A DNA stretch of 64,000 nucleotides from Vicinamibacteria bacterium (GCA_046331285.1 JAXLRD010000013.1:18700-82699), one strand, 5' to 3'; numbered from the stretch's first letter, positions 13,379 to 30,752 are shown. Translations and numbers: made by a program. Notes: generated by a model not told the origin, from the sequence alone.

Positions 13379-13406
13379 CGACGACGGCGCCCGGCCGCCG
13401 CGCCGC

Positions 13407-14702: not shown

Positions 14703-15616
14703 GCGCCTCCGCCCTGGGGGACGAAAGGCCCCGCCCGGAGCCAGCGGGACGGCAGCGCGCGGCCGAGCCGGGCCTCGAGCGACCGCGACGCCGCGGCGAC
14801 CGCCGCGACGTCGACGCCGGTCTCGATGCCCATGCCGTCGAGCATGTGGAGGAGGTCCTCGGTGGCGAGGTTGCCCGCGGCGCCGGGCGCGTACGGGCAG
14901 CCGCCGAGGCCGCCGGCCGAGCTGTCGACGACGGCGACGCCCTCGTCGAGAGCGGCGAGGACGTTGGCGAGCGCGGTCCCCCGCGTGTCGTGGAAGTGGG
15001 CGGCCAGCGACACGCCGGGCAGCGCTTCGCCGAGCGCGCCGAAGACGTCCGAGGCTCGTGTGGGCACCGCGACGCCGATGGTATCCCCGATCGACACCTC
15101 GTCGCATCCCGCCGCGGCCAGCCGCCGGGCCACCTCGACGACGCGCGCGGTCGGCACGTGGCCCTCGAAGGGACAGGCGAAGGCGGTCGACACGTAGCCG
15201 CGGACCCGGAGCCCCTCCCTCTTCGCCTCGGGGACGAACTCGGCGAATCGGGCGAAGGTCTCGTCGATCGAGGCGTTCGTGTTGCGGCGCGAGAACGTCT
15301 CGCTGGCCGCGGTGAAGACCGCGATCTCCCGCGCCCCGGCCGCCCGCGCCCGCTCCCAGCCGGCGCGGTTCGGCACGAGCACCGGCAGGCGCACGCCGGC
15401 GTGGCCGGCCAGGCGGCGCAGCACCTCGTCCGAGCCCGCCATCTGCGGGACCCACTTCGGGGAGACGAAGGCGCCCGCCTCGACGACCGGGAGGCCCGCC
15501 GCGATCAGCCCCTCGCAGAAGGCGACGCGCGCGTCGACGGAGAGGGAGGCCGCCTCGTTCTGCAGGCCGTCGCGCGGGCCGACCTCGACCACGGTGACGC
15601 GGCGCGGCCGGCTCAC
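14699..15616 (-). CDS. liuE: hydroxymethylglutaryl-CoA lyase
   Basis: VEVGPRDGLQNE...FVSPKWVPQM...HFHDTRGTALAN...GGLGGCPYAPGAAGN are the canonical HMGL motifs. GTG 15616 overlaps the upstream stop. Confidence 0.92.
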   Translation of the reverse strand: MSRPRRVTVVEVGPRDGLQNEAASLSVDARVAFCEGLIAAGLPVVEAGAFVSPKWVPQMAGSDEVLRRLAGHAGVRLPVLVPNRAGWERARAAGAREIAVFTAASETFSRRNTNASIDETFARFAEFVPEAKREGLRVRGYVSTAFACPFEGHVPTARVVEVARRLAAAGCDEVSIGDTIGVAVPTRASDVFGALGEALPGVSLAAHFHDTRGTALANVLAALDEGVAVVDSSAGGLGGCPYAPGAAGNLATEDLLHMLDGMGIETGVDVAAVAAASRSLEARLGRALPSRWLRAGPFVPQGGGA

Positions 15617-16092
15617 GGCTCGATCTCGAGGAGAGCCCGTCCGGGCGCGACCATGTCGCCGGGAGCCACGTGCACCGCCCGCACGACGCCGTCGCGGGGC
15701 GCGCGCAGCGCGTTCTCCATCTTCATGGCCTCGACGACGAGGAGCTCCTGGCCGCGGACGACGCGCTCCCCCGCGGCGACGTGGACGGCCGCCACCCGGC
15801 CCGGCATCGGCGCCTCGAGCCCGCCGGCGTCGTGGCGCGAGGAGGCGCGGCCGCCCTCGCGCTCTTCCTCGAGGGTGTAGGCGACGCCGTCCCAGAACGC
15901 GTGGACGGAGCCGCCGTCCCGCGCGAGGTGGAGCACTCGGGCGCAGCCCTCCGCGCGCACGAGGTAGACGCCCTCGTCCAGCCTCTCGAGACCGAGGGCG
16001 AGGGCGTCGCGGCCGAGGGCGACCTCGACCCCGGCGCCCTTCACGCGGACCACGGGCTCGAACACTCGGTCGCCGCAGCGGAGCCGGGTCAC
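15613..16092 (-). CDS. liuD: methylcrotonyl-CoA carboxylase alpha, C-terminal BT/biotinyl-carrier part (separate frame)
   Basis: 159 codons ending in the biotinyl domain LEAPMPGRV...LLVVEAMKMENALRAP. GTG 16092 overlaps the TGA of the BC ORF. It is normally fused to the BC part. Confidence 0.7.
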   Translation of the reverse strand: MTRLRCGDRVFEPVVRVKGAGVEVALGRDALALGLERLDEGVYLVRAEGCARVLHLARDGGSVHAFWDGVAYTLEEEREGGRASSRHDAGGLEAPMPGRVAAVHVAAGERVVRGQELLVVEAMKMENALRAPRDGVVRAVHVAPGDMVAPGRALLEIEP

Positions 16093-17594
16093 GCCCCGCC
16101 CCCGATCCGCCAGTGGCCGAGGCTCGACCACGGGTCGTCGGTCGCCGCGCCGCCGCCTCCTCCCGCCGGCCGCGCGCCAGCGGCGCGCAGCGCGGCGGCG
16201 ATCGCGGCGACCGCGACGGCCGGGGGGCAGGGCCCGGGCGTCAGCTCCGAGAGGTGCTCCTCGATGAAACCCGTGTGCAGCGCTCCCGCGGCGAAGGCCG
16301 GGTGCTCGACGATCGCGCGCAGGCGCGCGAGGTTCGTGCGCACGCCGAGGACGACCGTGTGCCGCAGCGCGTCGCGCATGCGCTCGACCGCCTCGGCGCG
16401 GCCGCCGCCCCAGGTGATCACCTTGGCGAGCAGCGGATCGTAGTGGACCGACACCTCGGCGCCGCGCGCGAGGCCCGAGTCCACGCGCACCCCGGGCCCC
16501 GCGGGCTCCGAGAGGTGCAGCACCCGGCCCGGCGAGGGCAGGTCGTCCCTCTCCGGGTCCTCCGCGTAGAGCCGGCACTCGAGGGCGTGGCCCCGCCGGA
16601 CGAGGCCGTCCTGCTCGAAGCCGATCGGCCGACCGGCCGCGACCTCCAGCTGGAGGCGCACGAGGTCGAGTCCCGTCACCGCCTCGGTCACCGGGTGCTC
16701 GACCTGGAGGCGCGTGTTCATCTCGAGGAAGGCGAAGGCGCCGTCGGGCCCGAGCAGGAACTCGACGGTGCCCGCGTTGACGTAGGCCGTCGCGCGCGCC
16801 GCGGCCACGCCGGCCGCGCACAGGGCGTCGCGCGACCGCGCGTCGAGGGCCGGGCTCGGGGTCTCCTCGACGACCTTCTGGTGGCGGCGCTGCACCGAGC
16901 ACTCGCGCTCCCCGAGGTGGAGCGTCCGGCCGCTCCCGTCGGCGAGCACCTGAACCTCGACGTGCCGGGGGCGCTCGACGAACCGCTCGAGGACCATCGC
17001 GTCGTCGCCGAACGCGGCCTTCGCCTCGCGGCGGGCGGAAGCGAGGGCCGCGGCGAAGTCGGCCTCCCCGCGCACGACGCGCATGCCCTTGCCGCCGCCG
17101 CCGCGCGAGGGCTTGATCATCAGCGGCCAGCCGACGCGGCGCGCCTCCGCGGCGAGGGTCGCGTCCTGCTGGTCGTCGCCGTCGTAGCCCGGGAGCACGG
17201 GCACGCCGGCCGCGGCCATCATCCTCCGGGCGGCCTTCTTGTCGCCCATCCGGCGGTGGACGTCGCCCGGAGGCCCCACGAACACCAGCCCGGCGTCCCG
17301 TACCGCGTCGGCGAAGTCGCCGTTCTGGCTCAGGAACCCGTAGCCGGGGTGGACCGCGTCGGCGCCCGTGCGGCGCGCCGCGGCGAGGATGGCGTCGATC
17401 GAGAGGTAGGACCGCCCGGCCTCCGCGGGCCCGATCTCCACCGCCTCGTCCGTCTCGCGCACGTGGCGGGCGCCCCGGTCGGCCTCGGAGAAGACGGCGA
17501 CCGTCGGCAGCCCCATGACCCGGCAGGTCCGCGCGACCCGGACCGCGATCTCGCCGCGGTTCGCGATCAGGACCTTGCGGAAGGGCCGGGCCAT
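16089..17594 (-). CDS. liuD: methylcrotonyl-CoA carboxylase alpha, biotin carboxylase part
   Basis: MARPFRKVLIANRGEIAVRVARTC...GGGGKGMRVV...EMNTRLQVEHPVTE. 501 aa, ending at a G-rich run just before the BCCP frame begins. Confidence 0.9.
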   Translation of the reverse strand: MARPFRKVLIANRGEIAVRVARTCRVMGLPTVAVFSEADRGARHVRETDEAVEIGPAEAGRSYLSIDAILAAARRTGADAVHPGYGFLSQNGDFADAVRDAGLVFVGPPGDVHRRMGDKKAARRMMAAAGVPVLPGYDGDDQQDATLAAEARRVGWPLMIKPSRGGGGKGMRVVRGEADFAAALASARREAKAAFGDDAMVLERFVERPRHVEVQVLADGSGRTLHLGERECSVQRRHQKVVEETPSPALDARSRDALCAAGVAAARATAYVNAGTVEFLLGPDGAFAFLEMNTRLQVEHPVTEAVTGLDLVRLQLEVAAGRPIGFEQDGLVRRGHALECRLYAEDPERDDLPSPGRVLHLSEPAGPGVRVDSGLARGAEVSVHYDPLLAKVITWGGGRAEAVERMRDALRHTVVLGVRTNLARLRAIVEHPAFAAGALHTGFIEEHLSELTPGPCPPAVAVAAIAAALRAAGARPAGGGGGAATDDPWSSLGHWRIGGGA

Positions 17595-17601
17595 GCCGCG
17601 C

Positions 17602-19260
17602 TCAGCTCGTCTCCGGCCCGCCGAGCCACCGCGCGACGAGCACGGTCACGTCGTCGTACTGGGGCACGTCGGCCGCGAACTCCTCGACGCGGTCGACGAG
17701 GCCGCGGACGAGCGCGGCCGGGGGCGCGCCGGCCGAGGCCGCGAGGTGCTTCTCGAGGCGGAGGACGTGGAACTCCTCGCCCGCGGGGCTGCGCGCCTCG
17801 ACGACGCCGTCGGTGTAGAGGACGAGGGTGTCGCCCCGGCCGAGCCGCGCGGTCGCCCCGCGGTACTCCTGGCCCTCGACCGCCCCGAGCGCCGGCGCGG
17901 AGGGCTCGCCGAACACGACGAGCCGCCCCTCCCGGTCGAGGCGGTACGGCGGGTTGTGGCCGGCGTTCACGTACTCGAGCTCGCCCGTCGCGAGGTCGAG
18001 GCGGGCGACGAAGGCGGTGACGAACATCGCGCGGTCGTTGTCGCGCGCGAGCTCCGCGTTCATCCGCTCGACCGCGGAGGCCACGGTCGCGGCGCCCTGG
18101 GCGACGGCGCGGAAGAGCGTCTTCGTCACCGCCATGAAGAGGGCGGCCCCGACGCCCTTGCCGGAGACGTCGCCGATCATCAGCCAGACGCGCCCGCCGT
18201 CGCCGAGGACGTCGTAGAGATCGCCGCCGACGGAGCGCGCCGGCCGGAGGTTCGCCGCGACCTCGATCTCCGGCCGGTCCGGGAACGCCCGCGGCAGCAT
18301 CGCCATCTGGATGTCGTGGGCGAGCTCGAGCTCGCGGTCGAGGAGGCGCCGCCGGGCCGCCTCCTCGGTGAGGGCGATGTTGCGGATGCGGAGGGCGGCG
18401 GCCGAGGCCAGCGCCACGAGCAGCTCGAGGTCGCCTTCCTCGAAGGGACGCGGCCGGTGGGCGCAGCCGAGGGCGATCATGCCGAGGCAGCCCTCGTCGT
18501 CGAGAAGCGGGGCCGCGATCAGGGTGCGGACGCCGGAGATGACGAGGCTCTCCGACGCGGCGAAGCGCTCGTCGAGCCCGGTGTCGACGACGAGCGCGGC
18601 GACGCCCTTCTCGGTCACTTCCTGGGCGAGCCGCCGCGAGTAGCCGAAGTCGTCCTTCGTCCCCGGCGAGCGCCGGCTGGCCGCGCGGTCGAACGTGCCG
18701 TCCGGCCGCCGCAGGAACACGGCCCCCTGGTCGGGCGCGAGGTGGGTGAAGGCGCTCTCGAGGATGAGCTCGAGGAGCGCCTCGAGGGTGATCGGCGAGG
18801 CCAGGCGCTTGTGGACCTCGTTGAGGAGGCGCAGCCGGCCCGCCGCGCGCGCGTCGGCGGTGGGGGCCACTCCATCCTCCGAGGAGAGGAACACCGAGGC
18901 GTGGCGCAGGACCGTGCGGCCCGACAGCTCGCCGGCCTCGAGCCCGTCGTCGCCGCGCGCGACGGCCTCTTCGTCCTCGACCACGATGCGGCTCTCCGCG
19001 AGGCGGATGACGTCGCCGGCGCGGACGACCGTCGCCTCGCCGAGCGGCCGATCGTTGAGGTACGTCGTGTTCCGCGACCCGAGGTCCTCGAGGAACCACC
19101 CGCCCTCGCGCCGCGACAGCCGCGCGTGGAGCCGCGAGAGGAAGCGGTCGTTGACGACCACGTCGGCCTTGCTCGAGCGGCCGAGGACGAGCGAGTCGCC
19201 CTCGAGGGAGCGGACGAACGGCTCGCCCTCGCGCGGCTCGATCCGCAGGCGCAGGACCAC
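17602..19260 (-). CDS. FHA - GAF - PP2C (SpoIIE/RsbU-type) protein phosphatase
   Basis: FHA (LVLGRSSKADVVVNDRFLSRLHARL...NTTYLN), then GAF, then PP2C (VGGDLYDV...IGDVSGKGVGAALFM...NAGHNPP...LYTDGVVEA). GTG 19260 lies 2 nt after the STAS stop. The start is uncertain. Confidence 0.85.
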   Translation of the reverse strand: MVLRLRIEPREGEPFVRSLEGDSLVLGRSSKADVVVNDRFLSRLHARLSRREGGWFLEDLGSRNTTYLNDRPLGEATVVRAGDVIRLAESRIVVEDEEAVARGDDGLEAGELSGRTVLRHASVFLSSEDGVAPTADARAAGRLRLLNEVHKRLASPITLEALLELILESAFTHLAPDQGAVFLRRPDGTFDRAASRRSPGTKDDFGYSRRLAQEVTEKGVAALVVDTGLDERFAASESLVISGVRTLIAAPLLDDEGCLGMIALGCAHRPRPFEEGDLELLVALASAAALRIRNIALTEEAARRRLLDRELELAHDIQMAMLPRAFPDRPEIEVAANLRPARSVGGDLYDVLGDGGRVWLMIGDVSGKGVGAALFMAVTKTLFRAVAQGAATVASAVERMNAELARDNDRAMFVTAFVARLDLATGELEYVNAGHNPPYRLDREGRLVVFGEPSAPALGAVEGQEYRGATARLGRGDTLVLYTDGVVEARSPAGEEFHVLRLEKHLAASAGAPPAALVRGLVDRVEEFAADVPQYDDVTVLVARWLGGPETS

Positions 19261-19262
19261 GG

Positions 19263-19601
19263 CTACCCGGCGAGCCGCGCGAGCGCCTGCGGCCGCGCCG
19301 CCTCGATCGCGAACAGCGGCAGGAAGCCCGCGAGCTCGAGGACACCCTTCACCGCCGGCCCGAGGCCGCACAGGACGAGGGCGGCGGGAGGCTCCTTCAG
19401 CCGCTTCGCCGCCATCAGCAGCACGCGCAGGCCGGCGCTGCTGACGTACTCGACGCCGGCGAGGTCGAGCACCAGCCGGCGCTGGCCGGCGTCGATCCGC
19501 GTCACCACGAAGCGCTCGAGCTCGCTCGAGCTCACCGAGTCGAGGCGGCCGAGCGGCGCGATCACCAGCGCCCGCTCCGCCCGCTCCTCGTCGATCCGCA
19601 T
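19263..19601 (-). CDS. STAS-domain anti-sigma-factor antagonist (RsbV/SpoIIAA-like)
   Basis: 112 aa. LVLDLAGVEYVSSAGLRVLL contains the conserved phosphorylatable Ser context. ATG 19601 overlaps the upstream stop (TGATG). Confidence 0.88.
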   Translation of the reverse strand: MRIDEERAERALVIAPLGRLDSVSSSELERFVVTRIDAGQRRLVLDLAGVEYVSSAGLRVLLMAAKRLKEPPAALVLCGLGPAVKGVLELAGFLPLFAIEAARPQALARLAG

Positions 19602-20056
19602 CACCCGCCCTCCTGGCCCTCGATCGCGACGAGACGCCGCCGCAGACGCAGGCGGTTCGTCCCGCCGGCGCGCTCGTAGACCACCTCGTCCATCAGACGC
19701 CGCACGAGCGCGATGCCGAGCCCGCCGATCGGACGCTCCTCGACCCCCAGCGCCGTGTCGGGCGCAGCCGCGGAGAGCGGGTCGAAGGCCGGGCCGTCGT
19801 CTTTCACCACGACCTCGCACGCCGGCGCCCCGGCCGACGCGTCGAGCGCGAACTCGACCTCGACCCTCGCGTCCGCGCGCCCGCCCGCGCCGTGGTGGAC
19901 GACGTTGGCCAGCACCTCGTCGAGCGACACCTCGACCGGCCAGGTCACCGCCTTCGAGAGGCTGGCGGCGGCGAAGAGGGCCGCGAGGGCATCGAGCGCC
20001 TCGCGGACACCCTCGTCGCTGGCCGGCACGCTGAGGCGTCGGGTCTCGAGCGACAT
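19601..20056 (-). CDS. RsbW/SpoIIAB-like HATPase_c serine kinase (anti-sigma regulatory factor)
   Basis: LDEVLANVVHHG (N box), VKDDGPAFDP (G1) and IGGLGIALVRRLMDEV (G2). ATG 20056 chosen because GAGGAG lies 6 nt upstream. The track ORF begins 13 codons earlier. Confidence 0.85.
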   Translation of the reverse strand: MSLETRRLSVPASDEGVREALDALAALFAAASLSKAVTWPVEVSLDEVLANVVHHGAGGRADARVEVEFALDASAGAPACEVVVKDDGPAFDPLSAAAPDTALGVEERPIGGLGIALVRRLMDEVVYERAGGTNRLRLRRRLVAIEGQEGG

Positions 20057-20173
20057 CCCGCTCCTCGCGACGGAGGAAAAAGTGGAGGGCATCATACAAC
20101 GGCGCCTCCGCGGGGCGCGGCTCGGCCGGATGTGCTAACGTCGCGCCAACTTTCCCTCGGCCTTCCGGTACTT

Positions 20174-20713
20174 ATGGTGGATGACGCTCCGGACAACGCT
20201 CTCGTCGCGCGCTGCCTCACGGGAGACGTCGAGGCCTTCGCACCTCTCGTGCGCCGCTACGAGCGCGTCCTCTACAACGTCGCCCTGCGGATGCTCGGCG
20301 ACCGGGAGGAGGCCCGGGACGTCACCCAGGACGCTTTCCTCAAGGCCTTCCAGAAGCTCGACACCTTCGACCCGAGCTACCGCTTCTTCAGCTGGATGTA
20401 CCGGATCGTGGTGAACGAGTCGCTGAACGCGCGGGGCCGCCGGGCGCCGGTGGCCCCCCTCGAGATCGACCTGCCGGCGGCCGCCCGCGCCGACGACGGC
20501 CTGAGGGAGCGCGAGGTGCGGGACCGGGTGCAGGCGGGGCTCGCGCGGCTGGCTCGGACCGACCGCGAGGTGATCGTCCTGAGGCACTTCGCGGAGCTCA
20601 GCTACGCCGACATCGCGGTGTCGCTGGGCATCGCCGAGAAGACGGTGAAATCGCGGCTCCACGAGGCGCGCCAGCGCCTCGGACGCGCCCTCGAACAGGG
20701 GATCCACGGATGA
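20174..20713 (+). CDS. ECF (sigma-70 family, group 4) RNA polymerase sigma factor
   Basis: Region 2 is FAPLVRRYERVLYNVALRMLGDREEARDVTQDAFLKAF...FFSWMYRIVVNESLN. Region 4 is REVIVLRHFAELSYADIAVSLGIAEKTVKSRLHEAR. Confidence 0.92.
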   Translation: MVDDAPDNALVARCLTGDVEAFAPLVRRYERVLYNVALRMLGDREEARDVTQDAFLKAFQKLDTFDPSYRFFSWMYRIVVNESLNARGRRAPVAPLEIDLPAAARADDGLREREVRDRVQAGLARLARTDREVIVLRHFAELSYADIAVSLGIAEKTVKSRLHEARQRLGRALEQGIHG

Positions 20714-21825
20714 GCGGCAAGACCCTCGAAGAGCTGATCGACGGCGAGGTCGAGGGGGCGAACACGCCCCTGGAGTCGGCCCGCCTCCGGGAGTGGGCCG
20801 CCCGCGAGCCGGCCGTCGCCGAGCGCCTCGAAGTCCACCGGAGGGCGGCGGCCGCGCTGGCCGAGGCCGCCCGGGAGAACGCCCCCGCGGGCCTCCGGGA
20901 CACGGTCCTCGAAAAGGTTCGAGCCGGGGGCTCGGAGAGCCAACTTTCCCCCGCGTCCAATGTACTGGTCGATAGCACCCCATCTGACGGGAACTGGGCC
21001 GGTCGGCGAGGCCGTGGAGGATCGAGCATGGCGACGAGCAGGAAGGTCTTGGTGGGCATCGCGGCGGCGGCCGTCCTCGCGATCGGCTACTTCGCCGTCA
21101 ACGGCTTCCCGCCGGTCGGCCCGGGCGCCGAGGGAACGGTCGGCGCGGCCAAGCGCTACCAGTCCGAGCAGATGAACGCCGGCGACGTGACGGTCCAGGA
21201 CGACGGTGTCCAGGCCCTGCTCCAGAGCGACGACTTCCGCCGCGTGGTCGCCGACAAGGAGACGCGGGCGATCCTGACGAGCCGCGAGTTCCAGAGGGCC
21301 GTCTCCGACGCCTCGGTGCAGGCCGTCCTCCACCAGCTCGCCACCGACAAGTCGTTCGCGGACAGCATCCGACTCGCCGCGGCCGACGGCGCGGCGCAGA
21401 AGCTGTTCGCCGACGCGGCTCGCAGCGCGGCGGCGGCTGATGCCGCTCGCTCCGGCGCGGCTGACGCGGCTCGCTCGGGTGCGGCTGATGCGGCTCGCTC
21501 CGGCGCGGCCGATGCCGCCCGCTCCGGCGCGGCCGACGCCGCTCGCTCCGGCCTGCTGAGCCTCGCCTCGCACAACCAGGCGTTCGCGCAGCTGGCCCGC
21601 AACGAGGCCTTCGCCAAGGCTCTCCAGAACGGCGCCTTCGCCAGCCTGCTGTCGAACCAGAGCTTCGCCGGATCTGATCAGCAACCCGGCCGCCGCCGGA
21701 CTGCTCTCGAGCGGCGCCTTCCAGCAGGCCATCGCGAGCGGCGCGGTGCAGAAGGCCGTCGACGCGGCCGCGGGCGGAGCGGCGGGCGGAGCGGTCGCCC
21801 GCTAGACCGGCAACGCCGGGCCTGA
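20710..21825 (+). CDS. putative single-pass anti-sigma factor with a repetitive extracytoplasmic domain
   Basis: ATGA overlap with the ECF gene. Cytoplasmic N-terminus of about 70 aa, TM VLVGIAAAAVLAIGYFAV, then an Ala/Phe-rich repeat region with (AADAARSG)x5. The last 50 codons look frame-shifted; an alternative frame ends at 21805. Confidence 0.6.
   Translation: MSGKTLEELIDGEVEGANTPLESARLREWAAREPAVAERLEVHRRAAAALAEAARENAPAGLRDTVLEKVRAGGSESQLSPASNVLVDSTPSDGNWAGRRGRGGSSMATSRKVLVGIAAAAVLAIGYFAVNGFPPVGPGAEGTVGAAKRYQSEQMNAGDVTVQDDGVQALLQSDDFRRVVADKETRAILTSREFQRAVSDASVQAVLHQLATDKSFADSIRLAAADGAAQKLFADAARSAAAADAARSGAADAARSGAADAARSGAADAARSGAADAARSGLLSLASHNQAFAQLARNEAFAKALQNGAFASLLSNQSFAGSDQQPGRRRTALERRLPAGHRERRGAEGRRRGRGRSGGRSGRPLDRQRRA
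21433..21552 (+). repeat. 24-bp tandem repeat x5 (plus a degenerate unit at 21409-21432), in frame, encoding AADAARSG
   Basis: gcggctgatgccgctcgctccggc and four near-identical units run head to tail. They differ mainly at third codon positions. Confidence 0.9.
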
Positions 21826-21840
21826 GGGTCCGGGTCGCTC

Positions 21841-21870
21841 GAGGAGCGCCGCCCGCGGGCGGCGCTCCTC
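21841..21870 (+). terminator. perfect 13-bp GC hairpin after the anti-sigma gene
   Basis: gaggagcgccgcc-cgcg-ggcggcgctcctc, followed by gacgcgTTTc. It lies 16 nt after stop 21825 and 32 nt before the next start. Confidence 0.6.
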
Positions 21871-21901
21871 GACGCGTTTCGACGGCTCGAGGAAGGAGAG
21901 C

Positions 21902-24844
21902 GTGGCCCACCCCCGAAGAGCGCTGCTCGCCGCCGCACTGCTGCTGACCGCCGCCGCCTCGCCCGCCCGCGCCCAGCTCAAGGAGCTGGAGACGAAGGAC
22001 CTGCGGCTCGTCTACTTCGACCCCTCGCTCGCCTACCTCACGCCCCACGTCGGCCGCTGCTTCGAGAACGCGCTCGCGTTCCACCGGAACCTCTTCGACT
22101 ATCGGCCCTCGGGCAAGGTCACCCTCCTCCTCGACGACTTCACGGACAACGGCAACGCCGCCGCGACGGCGGTCCCGCGGCCGTTCGTGAAGATCGACGT
22201 GGCGCCGCTGTCGTTCGCCCTCGAGACGATCGTGGCCAACGAGCGCGTGAACTGGCTCATGAACCACGAGCTCGTCCACGTCACGGCGAACGACGGGGCG
22301 GCGGGGGCCGACCGCTTCTTCCGCGGCCTCTTCCGGGGGACGGCGACGGCCGTACCGGCGCAGCCCGAGAGCATCCTGTACTTCTACCTGACGGCCCCCC
22401 GCGCGGCGGCGCCCCGCTGGTACCAGGAGGGCCTCGCGGTCTTCGTCGAGACCTGGATGGCCGGCGGCCAGGGGCGGGCGCAGGGCGCCTACGACGAGAT
22501 GGTCTTCCGGTCGATGGTGAGGGACGGGGCGCGCTTCTACGACCCGCTCGGCCTCGTCTCGGAGGGCGTCAAGGTCGACTTCCAGACCGAGGTGAACTCG
22601 TACCTCTACGGCACGCGCTTCGTGAGCTGGCTCGCGCGGACGCGCTCGCCGGAGGACGTCGTGAAGTGGGGCGCGCGGGGCCGGGACAGCCGCGCCTACT
22701 ACTCGTCCCAGTTCCGCCACGTCTTCGGCGTGCCGCTCGAGAAGGCGTGGCAGGACTGGGTCCTGTGGGAGAAGGGCTTCCAGGAGAAGAACCTCGCGGC
22801 GATCCGGCGCTACCCGACGACGCCCTGCGAGGACCTCTCGAAGCAGCCGCTCGGGTCGATGTCGCAGGCCTTCTACGACGCGCGGCGGAAGGTCCTCTAC
22901 GCCGGCGTCAACTACCCGGGCGTCGTCTCGCACGTCGCGGAGATCTCGACCGAGACGGGCGCCGTGCGGCGGATCGCCGACATCAAGGGCCCGAGGATCT
23001 ACACCGTCACGTCCCTCGCGTACGACCCGACGGCCGGGCGGCTCTTCTACACCGCCGACAACAACGCGTACCGCGACCTCGTGTCGCTCGACCCCGCCAC
23101 CGGGAAGCAGAGGATGCTCCTGCGCGACGCCCGCATCGGGGAGCTCGTCTTCGACGCCGCCACGGGATCGCTGTGGGGCATCCGCGCCCTCAACGGGATC
23201 GTCACCCTCGTGAGGATCCCGCCTCCCTACAAGGACTACGTCTCGGTCCACACCTGGGCCTACGGCGAGGTCGTCTACGACCTCGACGTCTCGCCCGACG
23301 GCACGCTCGTCTCCGCCTCGTTCGGCGACGCGGCCGGCCGGCAGTCGCTCCGCGTGATGAAGACGGAGGCGCTGGCGAAGGGCGACGCGACGCCCGTCGC
23401 GACCTTCGACTTCGGCGCCGCGATCCCCTCCGACTTCGTCTTCGCGCCGGACGGGAAGTCGCTCTACGGCAGCTCCTACTACACGGGCGTGTCGAACGTG
23501 TTCCGCTACGACCTCGCGAGCGGGAAGCTCGACGCGATGAGCAACACCGAGACCGGCTTCTTCCGGCCGGTCCCGGTGGGCGGCGACGAGCTCGTCGTCT
23601 TCCGCTACACGGGCCGGGGCTTCGTCCCCGCCCGCGTCCACGCGGCCCCGCTCGAGGACGTGAACCCGATCACGTTCCTCGGCGCGGAGATCGCCGAGGC
23701 CCACCCGGTCGTGAAGGGCTGGAAGCTCGGCTCGCCGGCCACGGTGCCGCTCGACTCGCTCGTCGTGCGCCGCGGGACCTACCACTCCGTCCGCCGCATC
23801 GGCCTCGAGTCGATCTACCCGGTGGTGCAGGGCTACAAGGACTTCGCCGCGTACGGGCTGCGCGCGAACTTCTCGGACCCGGTGATCCTCAACCGCGCGT
23901 ACCTCACCGCCACCTACACGCCCGACTCCGCCCTCCCGGCGAACGAGCGCTACCACGTCCAGGGCGAGCTGCAGCGCTACGACTGGACGGTCGGGTTCCA
24001 GGTGAACGGGGCGGACTTCTACGACCTCGTGGGGCCGACCCGCACGAGCCTCAAGGGCTACGGCATCGGCACGAGCTACAAGCGCACCCTCGTCTACGAC
24101 CAGCCGCGGCAGATGGACCTGAAGGTGGGCGTCACGTACTACGGCAACCTCGACCGCGTGCCGGACTACCAGGGCGTCGCGACGAACTTCACCGACGAGC
24201 TCGCGGCGCGGGCGCGGCTGAGCTACCGGAACTACAAGCACTCGCTCGGCTACGTGGACGAGGAGAAGGGGATCGGCTGGGACCTCGGCTACTCGGGGGA
24301 CCGCGTGAAGGGCGACGTGTTCACGCGCTTCTTCGGCAACCTCGACCTCGGCGCGCCCCTCCCGATCCGCCACTCGTCCGTCTGGCTGCGCACCTCGGCG
24401 GGCTGGTCGCCGGACGACCGGCAGGAGCCGTTCGCGAACTTCTACTTCGGCGGGTTCCGCAACAACTGGGTCGACTGGCGGGAGGAGAAGCGCTACCGCG
24501 ACCCCGAGTCGTTCCCCGGGCTCGACATCAACGAGGTCGGCGGGACGAGCTACGGCCGGGCGATGGTCGAGTGGAACCTGCCGCCCCTGCGCTTCCGCCG
24601 CGCCGGGACGCCCGGCTTCTACCTCACCTGGGCGCGGCCGGCCCTCTTCGCCTCGACCCTCGTCACGAACCCGGGCTCCTCTGCCTTCCGCCGCACGATC
24701 TCGAACGTCGGCGGGCAGGTGGACTTCCGCTTCGGCATCCTGTCCCGCCTCGAGCTGACCCTCTCGGCCGGCTACGCGGCGGCGTTCGAGAGCGGGCGGA
24801 AGACGAAGAACGAGGCGATGGTCTCGCTCAAGATCCTGCGCTGA
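21902..24844 (+). CDS. secreted 980-aa protein: HExxH metallopeptidase-like domain - beta-propeller-like middle - C-terminal beta-barrel-like region
   Basis: GTG after GGAAGGAGAG. Signal peptide ...AAASPARA/QL. NWLMNHELVHV plus WYQEGLAVFVE. Repeated ...PDG(T/K)... strands. The C-terminal 350 aa show alternating aromatic/Gly-rich strands (YGLRANF, YGIGTSY, GYSGD, VDFRFG). Confidence 0.7.
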   Translation: MAHPRRALLAAALLLTAAASPARAQLKELETKDLRLVYFDPSLAYLTPHVGRCFENALAFHRNLFDYRPSGKVTLLLDDFTDNGNAAATAVPRPFVKIDVAPLSFALETIVANERVNWLMNHELVHVTANDGAAGADRFFRGLFRGTATAVPAQPESILYFYLTAPRAAAPRWYQEGLAVFVETWMAGGQGRAQGAYDEMVFRSMVRDGARFYDPLGLVSEGVKVDFQTEVNSYLYGTRFVSWLARTRSPEDVVKWGARGRDSRAYYSSQFRHVFGVPLEKAWQDWVLWEKGFQEKNLAAIRRYPTTPCEDLSKQPLGSMSQAFYDARRKVLYAGVNYPGVVSHVAEISTETGAVRRIADIKGPRIYTVTSLAYDPTAGRLFYTADNNAYRDLVSLDPATGKQRMLLRDARIGELVFDAATGSLWGIRALNGIVTLVRIPPPYKDYVSVHTWAYGEVVYDLDVSPDGTLVSASFGDAAGRQSLRVMKTEALAKGDATPVATFDFGAAIPSDFVFAPDGKSLYGSSYYTGVSNVFRYDLASGKLDAMSNTETGFFRPVPVGGDELVVFRYTGRGFVPARVHAAPLEDVNPITFLGAEIAEAHPVVKGWKLGSPATVPLDSLVVRRGTYHSVRRIGLESIYPVVQGYKDFAAYGLRANFSDPVILNRAYLTATYTPDSALPANERYHVQGELQRYDWTVGFQVNGADFYDLVGPTRTSLKGYGIGTSYKRTLVYDQPRQMDLKVGVTYYGNLDRVPDYQGVATNFTDELAARARLSYRNYKHSLGYVDEEKGIGWDLGYSGDRVKGDVFTRFFGNLDLGAPLPIRHSSVWLRTSAGWSPDDRQEPFANFYFGGFRNNWVDWREEKRYRDPESFPGLDINEVGGTSYGRAMVEWNLPPLRFRRAGTPGFYLTWARPALFASTLVTNPGSSAFRRTISNVGGQVDFRFGILSRLELTLSAGYAAAFESGRKTKNEAMVSLKILR

Positions 24845-24869
24845 AGCGGCGGTCGGCGGCCGTGCGAGA

Positions 24870-26684
24870 ATGCCTCGCTCCATGCCGCGCACCCTTCCCT
24901 CGAGCCCCGAGCGGCCGTTCCCGCTCGTCCTGACGAGCCACGCCGGCCATGGCTGCGACGAGCGCAAGCTCGCCGTCTTCCCCGCCGGGATCGGCGCGCG
25001 CTTCGCCGTCCAGGACATGGGGGTTCACGCGAGAGAGACGCTCGGGGCCTTCGAGGACTGGACGCCGGTCTTCGAGGGCCCTCTCGTCCCGGGGCCTGAC
25101 GCGTTCGGCCCGTGCCTCCTCGGTGACTTCTCCGCGCTGGCGACGCCCGGCCTCTACCGCGTCGTCGTGCCCGGCACCGACGCCCGCTCGGTCCACTTCC
25201 CCGTCCACGACGGCGTCCTCGCCCCGCTGCCGCGTCTTCTGCTCGACTCGGTCCACCGCTCGCGGTGCGGCGACTTCGAGGACGAGACGCGGGGGCCGTG
25301 CCACCTCGACGACGGCGTCCTGAGCGAGAGCGGGCGGCCGGTCGACGCCACCGGCGGCTGGCACGACGCCGGCGACACGCGGAAGTGGATGGTCCACACG
25401 CTCGTCCCCCTGCTGGGATTCGCCGAGCTGCGCCGGCGCCTCGGGTGGCGGCCGGGCGCGCACTGGGCCCGCGCGCCGTGGGACGACGACGTCGCCGACG
25501 AGGTCGCCTGGGGCGCCGCCTTCGCGCTGAAGATGCAGGACCCCGCGACGGGGATGATCTGGGAAGACGTCGGCGGGGGCGGCGGCGCGCGCCTGGCGGC
25601 GGTGCGGTGGTGGTACGAGAACCACGCCGGCTGCGGCGGAGACAACTCGGAGAACCGCTTCACCGACAACGTCCGCGGCTCGGGCGACGAGCGCCGCGTG
25701 CGCGAGCAGTACAACCCGATCGCGCAGTACGTCGCCGTGAGCGTGCTCTGCCGCGCGGCGTCCCTCGTCGAGGCGGGCGACCGCGAGATCGCGGCGCGGT
25801 ACCGCGCCGCGGCCGGGCGGGCCTGGACCTTCGTACGCGGCCGCCGCGGCGACGACTTCCACGGGTGGACGTCCGTCCGCTCCTGGCGCGTCCACGCGGC
25901 GCTCGACCTCGCCGCGGCCGGCCTCGGGCCCGCCGACGAGCCGGTCGCCGCCGTCGCCCATCTCCTCGACCTCGCGGACCCGGAGACGTCCTTCTTCTTC
26001 AACGACACGACACGCCGCCAGCCGTTCCGCGGCATCCTGCACTCCGCGCAGCCGCTCGCCGCGCTCGCGGCGTTCGCCGAGGCGAACCCCGGCCACGCGA
26101 TGGCCGAGGTCGCGCGTGCGTTCCTGGCCCGCGCCTTCCGCGAGTACGTGGAGCCGCTGCGCTCGCTCTCGCCTTTCGGCATCGTCCCCTTCGGCCTCTA
26201 TCGGGATCCGCCGGCCACGCGCGACCGCTACCGGCCGTGGCGCGACTCCCTCTTCGTCCGCTTCCTCATGCCCGACGACTCCGAGACGCGCATCAACCAC
26301 GGCCTCGCCGGCCACTGGACGAGCTGGGCCCACGCCCTCGCCGCCGGGGGCCGCCTGCTCGGAGAGACCGCCTGGCGCGAGGCGGCGCTCGACCAGCTGC
26401 ACTGGCTGCTCGGCCGCAACCCGTTCGGCGCGAGCTTCGTCACGGGCGTGGGCCTCGGCCACCCGCTCCCGCACAGCTCCTACGACGGCGTCCGCCTCGG
26501 CGGGGTCATGAACGGCCCGCGCGGCGCCTGCGACGACCAGCCGTTCGCCGACCTCGAGCTGCGCTGCGACTGGGGCAGCGGCGAGTACTGGAACCTCCCG
26601 CTCGGGAACCTGCTGCAGGCCCTCGCCCACCTCCTCCCCGCGCGCGTCCCCGCGGCCCGCAAGCTCGGCCGGCGGGAGCGCTGA
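24870..26684 (+). CDS. glycoside hydrolase family 9 (endoglucanase/glucosaminidase-like) with N-terminal Ig-like domain; no signal peptide
   Basis: DATGGWHDAGDTRKW is the GH9 signature. The N-terminal 100 aa resemble the CelD_N Ig-like fold (LYRVVVPG). An (alpha/alpha)6-type remainder follows. Confidence 0.8.
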   Translation: MPRSMPRTLPSSPERPFPLVLTSHAGHGCDERKLAVFPAGIGARFAVQDMGVHARETLGAFEDWTPVFEGPLVPGPDAFGPCLLGDFSALATPGLYRVVVPGTDARSVHFPVHDGVLAPLPRLLLDSVHRSRCGDFEDETRGPCHLDDGVLSESGRPVDATGGWHDAGDTRKWMVHTLVPLLGFAELRRRLGWRPGAHWARAPWDDDVADEVAWGAAFALKMQDPATGMIWEDVGGGGGARLAAVRWWYENHAGCGGDNSENRFTDNVRGSGDERRVREQYNPIAQYVAVSVLCRAASLVEAGDREIAARYRAAAGRAWTFVRGRRGDDFHGWTSVRSWRVHAALDLAAAGLGPADEPVAAVAHLLDLADPETSFFFNDTTRRQPFRGILHSAQPLAALAAFAEANPGHAMAEVARAFLARAFREYVEPLRSLSPFGIVPFGLYRDPPATRDRYRPWRDSLFVRFLMPDDSETRINHGLAGHWTSWAHALAAGGRLLGETAWREAALDQLHWLLGRNPFGASFVTGVGLGHPLPHSSYDGVRLGGVMNGPRGACDDQPFADLELRCDWGSGEYWNLPLGNLLQALAHLLPARVPAARKLGRRER

Positions 26685-26685
26685 G

Positions 26686-27729
26686 GTGGCCGGCGTCACC
26701 CTGAACGTCGCGGCCGCGCTGCTGCCGGTGCTGCTGTTCCTGGCCCTGCTCGTCCTCCTCGACAGCTTCAAGCTCCTCTCGCTGCGGTCGGTGCTGCTCG
26801 CCCTCACCGCGGGCGCGGCGGCGGCCCTCCTCGGGGCGCGCCTCAACGTCGCGCTCCTCGACGCGAGCGGGCTCTCGACGACGGCCTACTCGCGCTACGC
26901 GGCGCCCCTCGTGGAGGAGCTGCTGAAGGCCGTCTGGTTCGTCGTCCTCCTGCGCCGCGGCCGCGTCGGGTTCCTCGTCGACGCCGCGATCCTCGGCTTC
27001 GCGATCGGCGCCGGCTTCGCGCTCGTCGAGAACGTGGAGTACCTGCGCGCCATGGCCGAGCCGCGCGTGCTGCTGTGGCTGGTGCGGGGCTTCGGCACGG
27101 CTCTCCTGCACGGGGCCACCACGGCCATCCTGGCGATGATCGCGAAGAGCCTGATCGACCGCCGGCCCCTGCCGCCGGCCCTCGCCGTCGTCGCCGGCCT
27201 CCTCGCGGCGGCGGCGATCCACTCCGCCTACAACCACTTCTTCCTGCCGCCCGTGGCCGCCGCCGCGGTGCTCCTCGTCGCCGTGCCGCTGCTCGTCGTC
27301 TTCGTCTTCGACCGCAGCGAGCGGGCAACCCGCGAGTGGCTCGGCACCGGCATCGACAGCGACCTCGAGATCGTCGAGTCGATCGTCACCGGCCGCTTCC
27401 TCGAGACGCGCCTCGGCGGCTACCTGCGCTCGCTGCAGGCGCGCTTCCCCGGCGAGGTCGTCGCCGACATGCTGTGCCTCGTGCGGCTGCAGGCCGAGCT
27501 GTCGATCCGGGCCAAGGGCCTCCTCCTCGCGCGCGAGGCCGGCCTCGACGCGCCGGTCGGCGAGGACGTGCGGGCGAGCCTCCAGGAGCTGCGCTACCTC
27601 GAGACCTCGATGGGGCCGACGGGGCGGCTCGCCCTCAAGCCGCTCTTCCGCGAGCGGGCCCGCGCCGCCTGGCAGGTGTTCCTGCTCGAGGAGGCGGGCG
27701 GGAGCGCCTCCCGGGCGAGCGCTCGTTGA
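26686..27729 (+). CDS. prsW: PrsW-family intramembrane metalloprotease with C-terminal cytoplasmic domain
   Basis: VEELLKAV (EExxK), [28 protein letters not shown] and IHSAYNHF are the PrsW motifs across multiple TM helices. GTG lies 1 nt after the GH9 stop. Confidence 0.85.
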
Positions 27730-27772
27730 CCGGCCTTCGCCGAGGCCGTACCATGCCCGTCCTCGACCCCAG

Positions 27773-29950
27773 ATGATCGGCCAGACCTTCTCGCACTACC
27801 GGATTCTCGACAAGATCGGCGGCGGCGGGATGGGCGTCGTGTTCCGCGCCGAGGACACGCGCCTCGGCCGACAGGTGGCGCTGAAGTTCCTTCCGGACGA
27901 GCTCGCGAGGGACGCGCAGGCGGTCGAGCGCTTCAAGCGCGAGGCGCGGGCCGCCTCCGCCCTCAACCACCCGCACATCTGCACGATCCACGACGCCGAC
28001 GAGGACCAGGGCCGTCCGTTCATCGCGATGGAACTGCTCGAGGGCCAGACGCTCAAGAGCCGCCTCGACGGCCGGCCGATGCCGACCGACGAGCTCGTGG
28101 AGCTCGCGATCCACGTCGCCGACGCGCTCGAGGCCGCGCACCGCAAGGGCATCGCGCACCGCGACATCAAGCCGGCGAACCTGTTCGTCACCGAGCGCGG
28201 CCAGGCGAAGATCCTCGACTTCGGCCTCGCGAAGCTGCTCGAGAGCCGCCGGGCGGGCGAGCCGGTCGACTCGGCGATGCCGACGGGCGAGTTCGCCACG
28301 AGCGCGGGCTCGACCCTCGGCACCGTCGCCTACATGTCCCCGGAGCAGGCCCGCGGCGAGGAGGTCGACGCCCGTACCGATCTCTTCTCCTTCGGTGTCG
28401 TCCTCTACGAGATGGCGACCGGCACCGCGCCCTTCGCCGGCGGCACGACGGCGACCGTGTTCGAGGCCATCCTCAACCGGACGCCGCCCTCGCCCTCCGA
28501 GCTCAACCGCTCCCTGCCCGAGGCCCTCGCGCAGATCGTCGACAAGCTGCTCGAGAAGGATCGCCGGCTGCGCTACCAGTCCGCGACCGAGCTGCGGGCC
28601 GACCTCCAGCGCCTCAAGCGGGAGCTCGACTCCGGGCGCACCGCCCCGGCCGCGGGCCGCGACCGTTCCGTCGCGGTCCTCTACTTCGAGAACCTCAGCG
28701 GGGCGAAGGAGGACGAGTACTTCCGCGACGGCATGACGGAGGACGTGATCACCGAGCTGTCCAAGGTCCGGAACCTCCGCGTCTTCCCGCGGGCGGCCGT
28801 CGTCGCGTTCCGCGACCAGTCCGTGACGGGGCCCCACGTGGGCCAGCAGCTCGGAGCCCAGTACGTCCTCGGCGGCTCTCTCCGCCGCGCCGGCAACCGG
28901 CTGCGCATCACGGCCCAGCTCGTGGAGGCCAAGACCGGCACCGCCGTCTGGGCCGAGCGTTACGACCGCGAGCTGAAGGACGTCTTCGAGGTCCAGGACG
29001 AGATCGCCCGCAACATCACGCAGGCCCTGCGGATCACGCTGACGCCGCAGGAGGAGAAGGCGCTCGCGGCCAAGCCCACCGGCGACCCGCGGGCCTACGA
29101 TCACTTCCTGAAGGGCCGGGCCTACTCGCGCCGTCTGACCCGCTCCGATCTCGAGCTGGCCCTCCAGATGTTCGAGCACGCCATCCTGCTCGACTCGGGC
29201 TTCGGCCTCGCCCACGCCGCCATCGCGAACGCGTGCGGCCTCGTTTTCGAGTGGCACGACTCCGACCCGAGGTGGCTCGACCGGGGCCGCGCCGCGAGCG
29301 AGCGCGCCCTGGCCCTCGACCCGAGCCTGCCGGAGGCTCTCGTGGGGCGGGCCCGCCTCCTCTACGCACAGAAGCGGTACGACGACGCGATCCGCGACGT
29401 CCGCCGGGCGATCGAGATGAAGAAGGACTGCGACGGGGCCTACAACATCCTCGCGCGCTCCCTCTTCGAGAGCGACCGCTGGGCCGAGGCGATCGAGACG
29501 GTCGACCAGGCCGTCGCGCTGAACGGCGACGACTACAACCTCTACGTGGCCTACATCAACATCTTCGACGGCCTCGGCCGCCGCGAGGACGCCGAGCGGC
29601 TGCGGGCGCGGGAGATCGCGGTGCTCGAGCAGCAGCTCCGGGACGTGCCCGAGGACGTTCGCGCGCGCATCCTCCTCGCCGCCGACTACGCGTCCGTGGG
29701 GCGCGAGGACGACGGCGTGCGCGAGCTCCAGAAGGCGGTCGACCTCCGCCCGAACGACTCGAACATCCTCTACAACGCCGCGTGCGCCTACGGCGTGATG
29801 AAGCGCAAGGCGGAAGCGATCGACCTCCTCCGCCGCTCGAAGGCGGCCGGCTACGCGAATCCCGACTGGGTCCGGCGCGATCCCGATCTCGCGTGCCTGC
29901 ACGGCGAGCCGGAGTTCGAGCGGCTGTTCGAGCCGTCGTCGCGGGGCTGA
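27773..29950 (+). CDS. Ser/Thr protein kinase with TolB_N-like and TPR domains
   Basis: [23 protein letters not shown]...ALKFL...HRDIKPAN...DFGLAK. Then [11 protein letters not shown]...[12 protein letters not shown] and TPR repeats extending to the C-terminus. Confidence 0.92.
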
Positions 29951-29969: not shown

Positions 29970-30752
29970 CTAGCCGCTCCAGCCGGGCTTGCGCTTCTCG
30001 AGGAAGGCCCGCAGGCCCTCCCGGCCCTCTTCGGTCGCTCGGCGCTCGGCGATCCGCGCGGTGGTGAGGCCGCGGACGTCCGCCGGCGCGCGGCCGGCGA
30101 CCTCGCGCACGAGGGCCTTCGCCGCGGCCACCGCTCCCGGCGCGGCCTGCAGGAGCTCGCGCACGCGGCCCTCGACGGCCGAGTCGAGCTCGCTCGCCGG
30201 GACGACGCGGTGGACGAGGCCGATCGCGAGCGCCTTGTCGGCCGAGAAGCGCTCGCCGGTCAGGAAGAGCTCGCGGGCCGCCGAGACGCCGATCCGGCGC
30301 AGCACGAACGGCGAGATCACCGCGGGGACGAGGCCGAGACGGACCTCCGAGAAGCCGAACTGCGCCTCGGCCGAAGCCACCGCGACGTCGGCCGCGGCGA
30401 CGAGGCCGCAGCCGCCGCCGAGGGCCGCGCCCTGGACGCGGGCGACGACCGCCTTCGGCGAGAGGTCGATCGCCTCGAAGAGGCCCGCGAGCGACTCGGC
30501 GTCGCGCCGATTCTCTTCCGGCGTGAAGGCGGCGACGGCCTGCATCCAGGCGAGGTCGGCCCCGGCGCTGAACACCGGCCCGTGCCCGCCCAGGACGATC
30601 ACCCGCACGTCCTCGCGCGCGCCGGCCGCGGCGACCGCCTCGCGCAGCGCGACGACCGTCGCGCCGTCGAAGGCGTTGCGGACGTCGGGCCGCGCGAGGA
30701 ACACCCGCGCGACCGCCCCGTCGACCCGCACCTCGACGCGATCGCCGCTCAT
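29970..30752 (-). CDS. enoyl-CoA hydratase/isomerase family, probably methylglutaconyl-CoA hydratase
   Basis: Crotonase fold: RNAFD...FSAGADL...GAALGGGCGL...FGFSEVRLGL. The liuC-like assignment is inferred from the liu genes nearby. Confidence 0.8.
   Translation of the reverse strand: MSGDRVEVRVDGAVARVFLARPDVRNAFDGATVVALREAVAAAGAREDVRVIVLGGHGPVFSAGADLAWMQAVAAFTPEENRRDAESLAGLFEAIDLSPKAVVARVQGAALGGGCGLVAAADVAVASAEAQFGFSEVRLGLVPAVISPFVLRRIGVSAARELFLTGERFSADKALAIGLVHRVVPASELDSAVEGRVRELLQAAPGAVAAAKALVREVAGRAPADVRGLTTARIAERRATEEGREGLRAFLEKRKPGWSG

Follow-up and report, generated by a model that had tools for sequence, protein, structure and literature searches.

The DNA described here is a window of 64,000 nucleotides from a Vicinamibacteria bacterium (GCA_046331285.1 JAXLRD010000013.1:18700-82699), in which the region 20174-27729 had been flagged as a candidate envelope signalling unit built around a sigma factor of the extracytoplasmic function (ECF) type, an anti-sigma protein, an outer-membrane-type metallopeptidase, a glycoside hydrolase of family 9 (GH9) and a PrsW-family intramembrane protease. 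The G+C content of the window is ~73% and long spurious open reading frames (ORFs) are abundant, so the real genes were told apart by third-position GC content (GC3), and their identities are backed by Pfam and NCBIfam. The features are collected in Table 1. On the minus strand, a biotin carboxylase gene (16089-17594) is neighboured by the phosphatase, STAS and kinase genes of a partner switch, and on the plus strand the genes run from the ECF sigma factor to a Ser/Thr kinase. The structural outline of the original prediction is correct: the ECF gene overlaps the next ORF (start at 20710) by 4 nt (ATGA), the genes of the 980-aa protein, GH9 and PrsW are separated by gaps of 25 nt and 1 nt, and a partner-switch operon lies divergently on the opposite strand. 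On the evidence of sequence, the locus is read as a module of envelope signalling that regulates itself and whose PrsW most likely cuts a protein that joins an anti-sigma domain to a membrane anchor, and we hold this reading with modest confidence, at slightly better than an even chance.

Table 1. Genes, promoter motifs and other elements of the cluster and its surroundings (positions counted from the first letter of the window; E-values and bit scores from profile searches).
Feature	Position	Strand	Evidence and remarks
FHA-GAF-PP2C (SpoIIE-type) phosphatase, RsbU-like, 552 aa	17602-19260	-	SpoIIE 7e-53, FHA 4.6e-18, GAF 5.2e-13
STAS anti-sigma-factor antagonist, RsbV-like, 112 aa	19263-19601	-	TIGR00377, 67.1 bits vs cut-off 53.45
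HATPase_c_2 serine kinase / anti-sigma, RsbW-like	19601-20095	-	PF13581 9.2e-26
P1, ECF-type promoter motif CAACTTT-N14-GTAC	20147-20171	+	Motif scan; stops 3 nt ahead of the sigma start codon
ECF sigma factor, 179 aa	20174-20713	+	Sigma70_r2, r4_2, Sigma70_ECF
Anti-sigma protein fused to a signal-anchored repeat protein	20710-21805 (the ORF as read runs to 21825)	+	Profile matches, orthologue alignment
P2, second ECF-type promoter motif	20941-20965	+	Motif scan; within the anti-sigma ORF, codons 78-86
Shine-Dalgarno GGAGGA and internal ATG (Met107; ATG at 21028)	21016-21030	+	Sequence reading; downstream of P2
Perfect palindrome / stem-loop, 17-nt arms	21839-21872	+	Between the anchor/anti-sigma and outer-membrane protein genes; minimum free energy (MFE) -39.9 kcal/mol
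Outer-membrane protein, 980 aa	21902-24844	+	Signal peptide, zincin-like HExxH…E domain 26-301, TolB-like propeller 309-580, 16-strand Omp85-like barrel 634-978
GH9 glycoside hydrolase	24870-26684	+	PF00759 1.1e-21; lineage-specific insertion, not a cluster member
PrsW-family intramembrane protease, 347 aa, with ~140-aa cytoplasmic C-terminal domain	26686-27729	+	PF13367
Ser/Thr kinase with TPR repeats	27773-29950	+	Pkinase 3.1e-48; cluster membership uncertain

For comparison, homologues of the 980-aa protein with 49-97% identity were taken as the centres of 83 genome loci, which were scored with the window proteins and which belong to Acidobacteriota, Eisenbacteria, Gammaproteobacteria, Zixibacteria, KSB1, Ignavibacteria and Bacteroidota; in the counts below, the denominators are the loci with enough flanking sequence. 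A reverse scan, started from PrsW, added 80 metagenome loci.

The sigma factor has the build of the ECF group (group 4), that is, regions 2 and 4 without region 3 in ~180 aa. It matches PF04542 (Sigma70_r2, 6.5e-17) and PF08281 (Sigma70_r4_2, 2.5e-15), its GC3 is 0.93, and against TIGR02937 it scores 106 bits (cut-off 42.9). SigW and SigM models are among its best NCBIfam matches, all under their own cut-offs, and it is not a SigW equivalog (PRK09641, 112 vs 209 bits; TIGR02948, 105.6 vs 243).

In most loci, the aligned upstream regions contain an ECF-type promoter motif, CAAC(T/C)TT-N~14-GTA(C/T), directly 5' of the ECF start, and this motif is kept even where a STAS gene on the same strand directly precedes the ECF gene. 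The window holds exactly two matches to it, compared with 0.02 expected; in the related loci, 57 coding-strand matches fall in the 3.6 kb before the outer-membrane protein gene, compared with only 14 at other places in 1.3 Mb. The first match in the window is P1, whose counterpart is found just upstream of the ECF gene in 32 of 45 loci from several phyla; because P1 ends so close to the sigma ATG, its transcript is probably leaderless or nearly so. The second is P2, located 192 nt upstream of the codons of a juxtamembrane motif in the anti-sigma/anchor protein. By the strict pattern P2 is found in 20 of 45 loci, and its equivalent lies 187-214 nt upstream of the same codons in 14 of 15 loci, including those with a separate anchor gene. 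A search for an ECF-type promoter upstream of 21902 had been proposed, but the motif scan finds none directly upstream of that position, where the 76-nt gap fits only the hairpin and a ribosome-binding site; the two motifs lie instead 5' of the ECF gene and within the anti-sigma ORF. Just upstream of P1, at 20131-20141, there is also an extended -10-like element, TGTGCTAACGT, which is kept as TGTGCTAnnGT in several Vicinamibacteria loci; judged from its sequence, it may be a basal housekeeping promoter of the sigma gene.

The anti-sigma protein is composed of a class-I-like anti-sigma domain (residues 1-~75), a linker, a single transmembrane (TM) segment (residues 113-130), the juxtamembrane motif G-T-V-G-A-A-K-R-Y (21133-21159), and 9-aa and 8-aa helical repeats. 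The anti-sigma domain has weak NCBIfam anti-sigma matches (1.2e-7 and 3.7e-6, far under the cut-offs) and no Pfam match. The earlier description of a single-pass anti-sigma-like gene at 20710-21825 is right as to the one TM segment, the tandem repeats and the anti-sigma resemblance, but not as to the end of the gene. Compared with a 95%-identical contig (L084), the window has a +1 insertion near 21670 (21665-21675), which leaves the last ~50 codons of the ORF out of frame and puts an Arg-rich tail in place of the last ~45 residues. Read in the shifted frame (21671-21805), the C-terminus agrees with those of the orthologues in L084 and in the next relative (L001), so that the real stop is at 21803-21805. 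The frameshift may be a true mutation, or it may stem from an error in the assembly.

Beyond the anti-sigma domain, the protein has the features common to a family of anchor proteins, namely a short basic N-terminus, one TM segment, the juxtamembrane motif G-T-[IV]-[GA]-[AP]-A-x-R-Y and a variable repeat array. The motif is conserved across phyla, and remnants of it are found in distant homologues. The array is made of 9-residue helical repeats of the xDxFRxALx type, to which the window adds 8-residue AADAARSG units, encoded by a 24-nt tandem repeat in five copies at 21409-21551. The same 24-nt repeat has 4 copies in L084 and ~9 in L001, that is to say, the repeat number of the ectodomain differs among close relatives. 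The TM segment (21046-21099) is Ala-rich (GIAAAAVLAIG), and we take it, as a lead only, to resemble the likewise Ala-rich cryptic degradation tags that are exposed after site-2 cleavage of RsiW and RseA. A conserved C-terminal signal was also considered for the anchor protein and rejected, as a terminal Arg is present in only 16 of 40.

The way in which the anti-sigma domain and the anchor are encoded divides the loci into two classes. In many lineages there is a separate anti-sigma gene (anti-sigma domain, TM segment and ~120-aa periplasmic domain) between the ECF and anchor genes; in the window, in L001, L003-L006, L022, L028 and L084, and in two loci from Gammaproteobacteria, all that is left of it is the anti-sigma domain (~75 aa), joined in frame to the anchor. 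The fusion is found in Acidobacteriota and some Gammaproteobacteria. The distance from the end of the ECF gene to the juxtamembrane motif is 270-520 nt in the fused class and 790-1040 nt in the split class. In L002 and L045 the anchor genes stand alone. Given these two gap classes, the continuous ORF, the in-frame indels relative to L001 and the stand-alone anchors of L002 and L045, the anti-sigma domain of the window is truly fused to the anchor protein. Moreover, P2 is followed by a Shine-Dalgarno sequence and an internal ATG, and the stand-alone anchor proteins of other phyla begin at a Met equivalent to Met107; a short anchor isoform that starts at Met107 and lacks the anti-sigma domain is therefore plausible from the sequence.

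The 980-aa protein has no Pfam or NCBIfam match above threshold. An AlphaFold2 (AF2) model built from 38 homologues (predicted local distance difference test, pLDDT, 80; predicted template modelling score, pTM, 0.78) gives a signal peptide, a helical domain, a beta-propeller and 16 long beta-strands, with the limits listed in Table 1; in the barrel, strands 11 and 12 are joined by a long loop (836-882) that bears residues invariant in the family alignment. In a Foldseek search with the full model, TolB structures rank first (E 3.7e-9 to 3e-7) and match the propeller, which is thus TolB-like. This search is dominated by the propeller and returned nothing for the peptidase or barrel parts, profile searches of the PDB with the full protein, the N-domain or the barrel gave no meaningful match, and the N-terminal domain modelled alone reaches a pLDDT of 46, too poor for a fold search. 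Below threshold, Pfam matches recur across the family: PD40 in 29 of 38 members, Omp85_2 (PF19143) in 22 of 38, all below the cut-off with a best value of 4.9e-4, and BSP peptidase in 6 of 38 (best E 0.001), while Peptidase_MA_2 matches one distant member at 1.7e-5 (25.1 bits vs cut-off 32.4). No POTRA domain is matched in the protein, and its N-terminal region consists of the helical HExxH domain and the propeller.

Within the helical domain, H122, E123, H126 and E176 (the last in RWYxEG) are invariant and also kept in 30%-identical members, and in sequence terms they make up the HExxH…E pattern of gluzincins; a peptidase domain is therefore probable. The protein had been presented as a secreted HExxH/propeller/barrel protein, of which the signal peptide, the HELVH motif (122-126), the propeller and the barrel all hold, but "secreted" does not, because the protein is Omp85-like and, by analogy, its peptidase and propeller should face the periplasm. 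The family is large: it comprises more than 4,500 clusters at 90% identity, nearly all of ~980 aa, and 2,700 representatives at 50% identity, and at least 590 species-representative genomes hold relatives; among the 120 best-matching clusters, not one bears a source-given functional name.

Between the anchor and outer-membrane protein genes lies the hairpin at which the ECF/anti-sigma pair had been said to end. The hairpin is real and perfect, but its arms measure 17 nt rather than 13 bp. A strong hairpin is present at the same position in most loci (median MFE -29.0 kcal/mol, vs -18.2 kcal/mol for coding controls), and several AT-richer genomes show a T-run after the equivalent hairpin. No T-run follows the hairpin of the window, and a simple terminator scan does not call it. 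It is likely to act as an intra-operon attenuator or as a 3' stabiliser.

In Bacillus subtilis, PrsW is the site-1 protease of the anti-sigma factor RsiW and starts its degradation. The assignment of the last gene of the region to the PrsW family is borne out by PF13367 (66.2 bits vs cut-off 23.5), and the EExxK, FxxxEN, H142 and HxxxN elements, together with the C-terminal domain, are conserved in 73 PrsW orthologues. Against the equivalog model of the B. subtilis type (NF033739) the protein scores 21.6 bits, with a cut-off of 225. The NCBIfam PrsW model is 210 positions long, and the ~140-aa C-terminal domain of the window protein presumably has no counterpart in B. subtilis PrsW. A PDB profile search with PrsW gave no meaningful match.

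The GH9 gene belongs to its family by PF00759 (78.1 bits vs 27.7) and by an HDAGD motif, and its N-terminus is not hydrophobic, in agreement with the prediction that it lacks a signal peptide. The original proposal was that the five genes are one unit, with a secreted protease and a cytoplasmic GH9 that produce or perceive a polysaccharide signal, upon which PrsW would release the sigma factor. The tight spacing and the host-like GC3 of 0.96 agree with such a unit, and a foreign origin of the gene is not supported by this composition. However, GH9 is absent from 83 of 83 genome loci and from 80 of 80 metagenome loci, and is found only in L084 (95% identical nucleotides); the outer-membrane protein and PrsW genes are separated by ~0-80 nt in the relatives, and by 2 nt in L001. 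Since only L084 shares GH9 and the two genes abut in L001, GH9 reads as a recent lineage-specific insertion into the operon. The five-gene arrangement is thus not the conserved unit, and with an insertion limited to a near-identical lineage a part for GH9 in generating the signal is very improbable.

The remaining genes form a conserved neighbourhood. PrsW is near the outer-membrane protein in 72 of 77 loci, directly downstream of it in 69, and a TM-anchored repeat protein is upstream of it in 59 of 63; an ECF gene is nearby in 42 of 48 loci, a STAS or RsbW-like gene in 45 of 48 and a PP2C gene in 22 of 45. In the reverse scan, the outer-membrane protein is directly upstream of PrsW in 59 of 68 cases, and most of the others have a rearranged order, as in L009. 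In Gammaproteobacteria and Eisenbacteria, all genes run in a single direction in the order PP2C, RsbW, STAS, ECF, anti-sigma, anchor, outer-membrane protein and PrsW. Because the neighbourhood recurs across phyla, the linkage is beyond chance, and the co-localisation of PrsW with the ECF pair on which the original prediction depended does exist in relatives, where the ECF pair, the HExxH protein and PrsW are a conserved set. Three loci that carry the cluster (L026, L029 and L081) are binned as Bifidobacterium breve, Bifidobacteriaceae and Levyibacteriota; as those taxa are not expected to have such a protein, these bins are probably contaminated.

Within this neighbourhood some parts are more constant than others. 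In L085, which has a 33%-identical homologue, this outer-membrane protein and PrsW are accompanied by a signal-anchored protein of 305 aa; the three lie beside a histidine kinase, and there is no ECF gene. On two independent Bacteroidota-like contigs (L086 8001-12098 and L087 4839-8936), PrsW and the outer-membrane protein form a single ORF of 1,365 aa with an internal signal peptide, again with the anchor protein upstream, and an alternative TTG start just before the signal peptide is possible. In the ECF-less Vicinamibacteria loci L007, L019, L024 and L036, the divergent PP2C-STAS-RsbW genes face anchor, outer-membrane protein and PrsW, and a promoter TTGACT-N17-CATATT lies ~1.0-1.2 kb upstream of the outer-membrane protein gene. 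Since the trio is kept in all these cases, the anchor, the outer-membrane protein and PrsW are the constant core, to which regulators have been added. It also follows from the ECF-less trios that the role of PrsW is not only anti-sigma cleavage and that, apart from any sigma release, the trio has a function of its own.

The main rival explanation starts from this point. According to it, the trio is an envelope maintenance or quality-control machine that belongs to the ECF regulon, the activity of the sigma factor is set by something else, such as the partner switch or an unlinked protease, and the anti-sigma protein is no substrate of PrsW. This agrees with P2, which would put the trio under sigma control, with the persistence of the trio without ECF, under sigma-70-type promoters or beside a histidine kinase, with the high conservation of the outer-membrane protein, as for an enzyme, and with the partner switch as a constant neighbour. 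It has to contend with the precise fusion of the anti-sigma domain to the anchor in the fused class, which ties sigma sequestration to the partner of PrsW, and with the established role of PrsW-family enzymes as anti-sigma site-1 proteases; we consider it possible but on balance unlikely.

Several observations weigh against our preferred reading. In the split lineages the anti-sigma protein is separate, with its own TM segment and periplasmic domain, so the anchor protein there is not the anti-sigma factor. By the NCBIfam cut-off, the PrsW of the window is not an orthologue of B. subtilis PrsW. The outer-membrane protein evolves very slowly (at least 49% identity across phyla), which fits an enzyme or a machine better than a variable sensor, and its Omp85 and peptidase assignments rest on sub-threshold Pfam matches and one AF2 model. 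Finally, as ECF-less trios exist under sigma-70-type promoters or other regulators, the trio could be output rather than input.

Another explanation takes the trio as an export device. Here PrsW would free the repeat protein, the Omp85-type barrel would translocate or process it in a manner like two-partner secretion (TPS), and the fused anti-sigma domain would report the export flux, as FlgM does for sigma-28. The Omp85-like barrel with its 16 strands and conserved loop between strands 11 and 12, the variable length of the repeat protein and its constancy as a neighbour, the PrsW::outer-membrane-protein fusion with its internal signal peptide, and the hairpin that separates the anchor gene from the downstream genes would all suit export. 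On the other side, POTRA and TPS-like secretion domains are both absent, the barrel bears a peptidase and a propeller instead, the anchor protein has no conserved C-terminal signal, and the model is drawn wholly by analogy; we regard it as improbable. In a broader form that we rate a little higher, though still as rather doubtful, the trio would be a novel trans-envelope device for proteolysis or export, in which PrsW releases a periplasm-spanning repeat protein that the outer-membrane protein processes or translocates, the RsbU/RsbV/RsbW genes gate the cytoplasmic domain of PrsW and not the sigma factor, and the anti-sigma domain grafted onto the substrate in lineages like that of the window turns the flux into a transcriptional signal in a FlgM-like way.

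The partner switch itself is an RsbU/RsbV/RsbW module, with a PP2C phosphatase, a STAS protein with a phosphorylatable Ser and an HATPase_c_2 kinase in one operon. Its presence on the other strand had been remarked on in the original prediction, and it proves to be a conserved feature of the cluster (45 of 48 loci). The 552-aa start of the phosphatase was taken from its L084 orthologue, and the STAS gene is nested in a longer spurious ORF. The SSAGL phospho-serine motif is kept in 25 STAS orthologues; the best NCBIfam matches of the kinase are RsbW models, all far below their cut-offs, and its G-box is conserved. The module adjoins the ECF gene, yet it also stays with the trio in ECF-less loci, so its target could be the sigma factor or the cytoplasmic domain of PrsW. 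The Ser/Thr kinase gene downstream of PrsW has its own sigma-70-like promoter (27726-27754, TTGACC-17-TACCAT), and such kinase genes are near the cluster in a minority of loci only; together with the FHA domain of the PP2C protein, the kinase hints at a phospho-threonine input.

We therefore return to the favoured reading, in which PrsW cleaves the anchor/anti-sigma protein, and which is reasonable because the constant partner of PrsW is the anchor protein, here provided with an anti-sigma domain; the comparison of loci strengthens it as a prediction. The sigma factor would drive its own operon from P1, with the anti-sigma protein translationally coupled to it, and from P2 it would drive everything from the anchor part through the outer-membrane protein and the inserted GH9 to PrsW. 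First of all, a signal received through the periplasmic repeat domain and the outer-membrane peptidase/propeller would expose the anchor protein, the outer-membrane part sensing, gating or trimming the repeat domain. PrsW would then make the site-1 cut near the juxtamembrane G-T-V-G-A-A-x-R-Y motif, in parallel to RsiW in B. subtilis, and the rest would be removed by a site-2 protease, presumably encoded elsewhere, and by cytoplasmic proteases, so that the sigma factor would be freed. Feedback would be given by the anchor made from P2 without the anti-sigma domain and by more anti-sigma protein from P1, and the RsbU/RsbV/RsbW-type partner switch would be an extra cytoplasmic input.

If this reading is true, the PrsW mechanism would extend to the double-membrane envelope, with a PrsW subfamily tied to an outer-membrane protein and an ECF sigma factor in at least five phyla. 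For the propeller-bearing Omp85 proteins, an orphan class, it would supply a functional context together with a probable catalytic domain. As promoters, a candidate cleavage motif and catalytic residues have been defined, the reading is open to direct tests.

As to the wider surroundings, the cluster is flanked in the window by the biotin carboxylase gene and by an enoyl-CoA hydratase gene (29970-30752), the only two genes checked there. The flanks in L001 carry HMG-CoA lyase, biotin carrier and biotin carboxylase genes (1469-4376) on one side and enoyl-CoA hydratase and carboxyltransferase genes (12809-17764) on the other. From this gene content, the signalling cluster appears to have been inserted into an operon like that of the leucine/methylcrotonyl-CoA pathway.

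Among known systems, the sigma-W/RsiW/PrsW/RasP system of B. subtilis is similar in its ECF sigma factor with a co-translated single-pass anti-sigma protein, a putative one in the window, in the intact EExxK, FxxxE and HxxxN motifs of PrsW, in the AAC…(C/T)GTA-type promoter, in the SigW models among the best sigma matches and in the Ala-rich TM segment of the anti-sigma protein. It differs in that the host of the window has two membranes, that PrsW is encoded in the same operon, has an extra cytoplasmic domain and is not an equivalog, that the anti-sigma ectodomain is made of 9-aa and 8-aa helical repeats with a juxtamembrane motif of its own, and that an outer-membrane partner is obligatory and a partner switch lies next door. 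To our knowledge, PrsW-type site-1 proteolysis of anti-sigma factors has been studied experimentally only in Firmicutes.

The FecA-FecR-FecI and sigma-E/RseA/DegS/RseP systems resemble the window in that one place encodes an ECF sigma factor, an outer-membrane beta-barrel protein and an inner-membrane anti-sigma protein whose other part is periplasmic; the barrel and the anti-sigma protein of the window are predicted ones, and so are the autoregulation of its sigma factor and the proteolytic sigma release, which are further common points. Unlike them, the window has an Omp85-like barrel with a peptidase and a propeller rather than a TonB-dependent transducer, it has no FecR domain and no DegS-type PDZ protease, and its site-1 candidate is of the PrsW type. 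The RsbU-RsbV-RsbW systems (sigma-B/sigma-F), together with their non-sigma variants BtrUVW, SypE/SypA and HsbR/HsbA, are the closest to the partner switch of the window, where a single operon next to a sigma gene encodes the PP2C phosphatase, the HATPase_c_2 kinase and a STAS antagonist whose phospho-serine motif is conserved. In the window, however, the sigma factor is an ECF (group 4) protein that already has a probable class-I anti-sigma factor, and in related loci the switch stays with the membrane proteins even where the ECF gene is absent. We know of no characterised example of a partner switch beside an ECF gene.

For the outer-membrane protein, the nearest description is the 'WD40-Omp85' subfamily (Heinz & Lithgow 2014, PMC4104836), which, according to the passages of that paper devoted to it, has a TolB-like N-terminal propeller and is defined by sequence clustering alone. 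Compared by description only, the 980-aa protein appears to fit it, with a predicted Omp85-like barrel after a TolB-like propeller and no POTRA domain, and to add a probable peptidase domain; those passages mention no peptidase domain and no such gene neighbourhood, whereas the window protein has the invariant HExxH…E residues and a fixed operon with PrsW and the anchor. Like PlpD-type Omp85 proteins, it probably carries an N-terminal enzyme domain. The papers searched on PrsW with ECF, STAS or Omp85 and on WD40-Omp85 do not describe the cluster, and the main text of the ECF re-classification paper makes no mention of PrsW, STAS or RsbW; the cluster is apparently undescribed. In summary, its components are of known kinds, and what is new is their conserved combination, a probable peptidase domain carried by an Omp85-like protein, a PrsW subfamily that has a cytoplasmic domain, a promoter within an ORF and the link with a partner switch.

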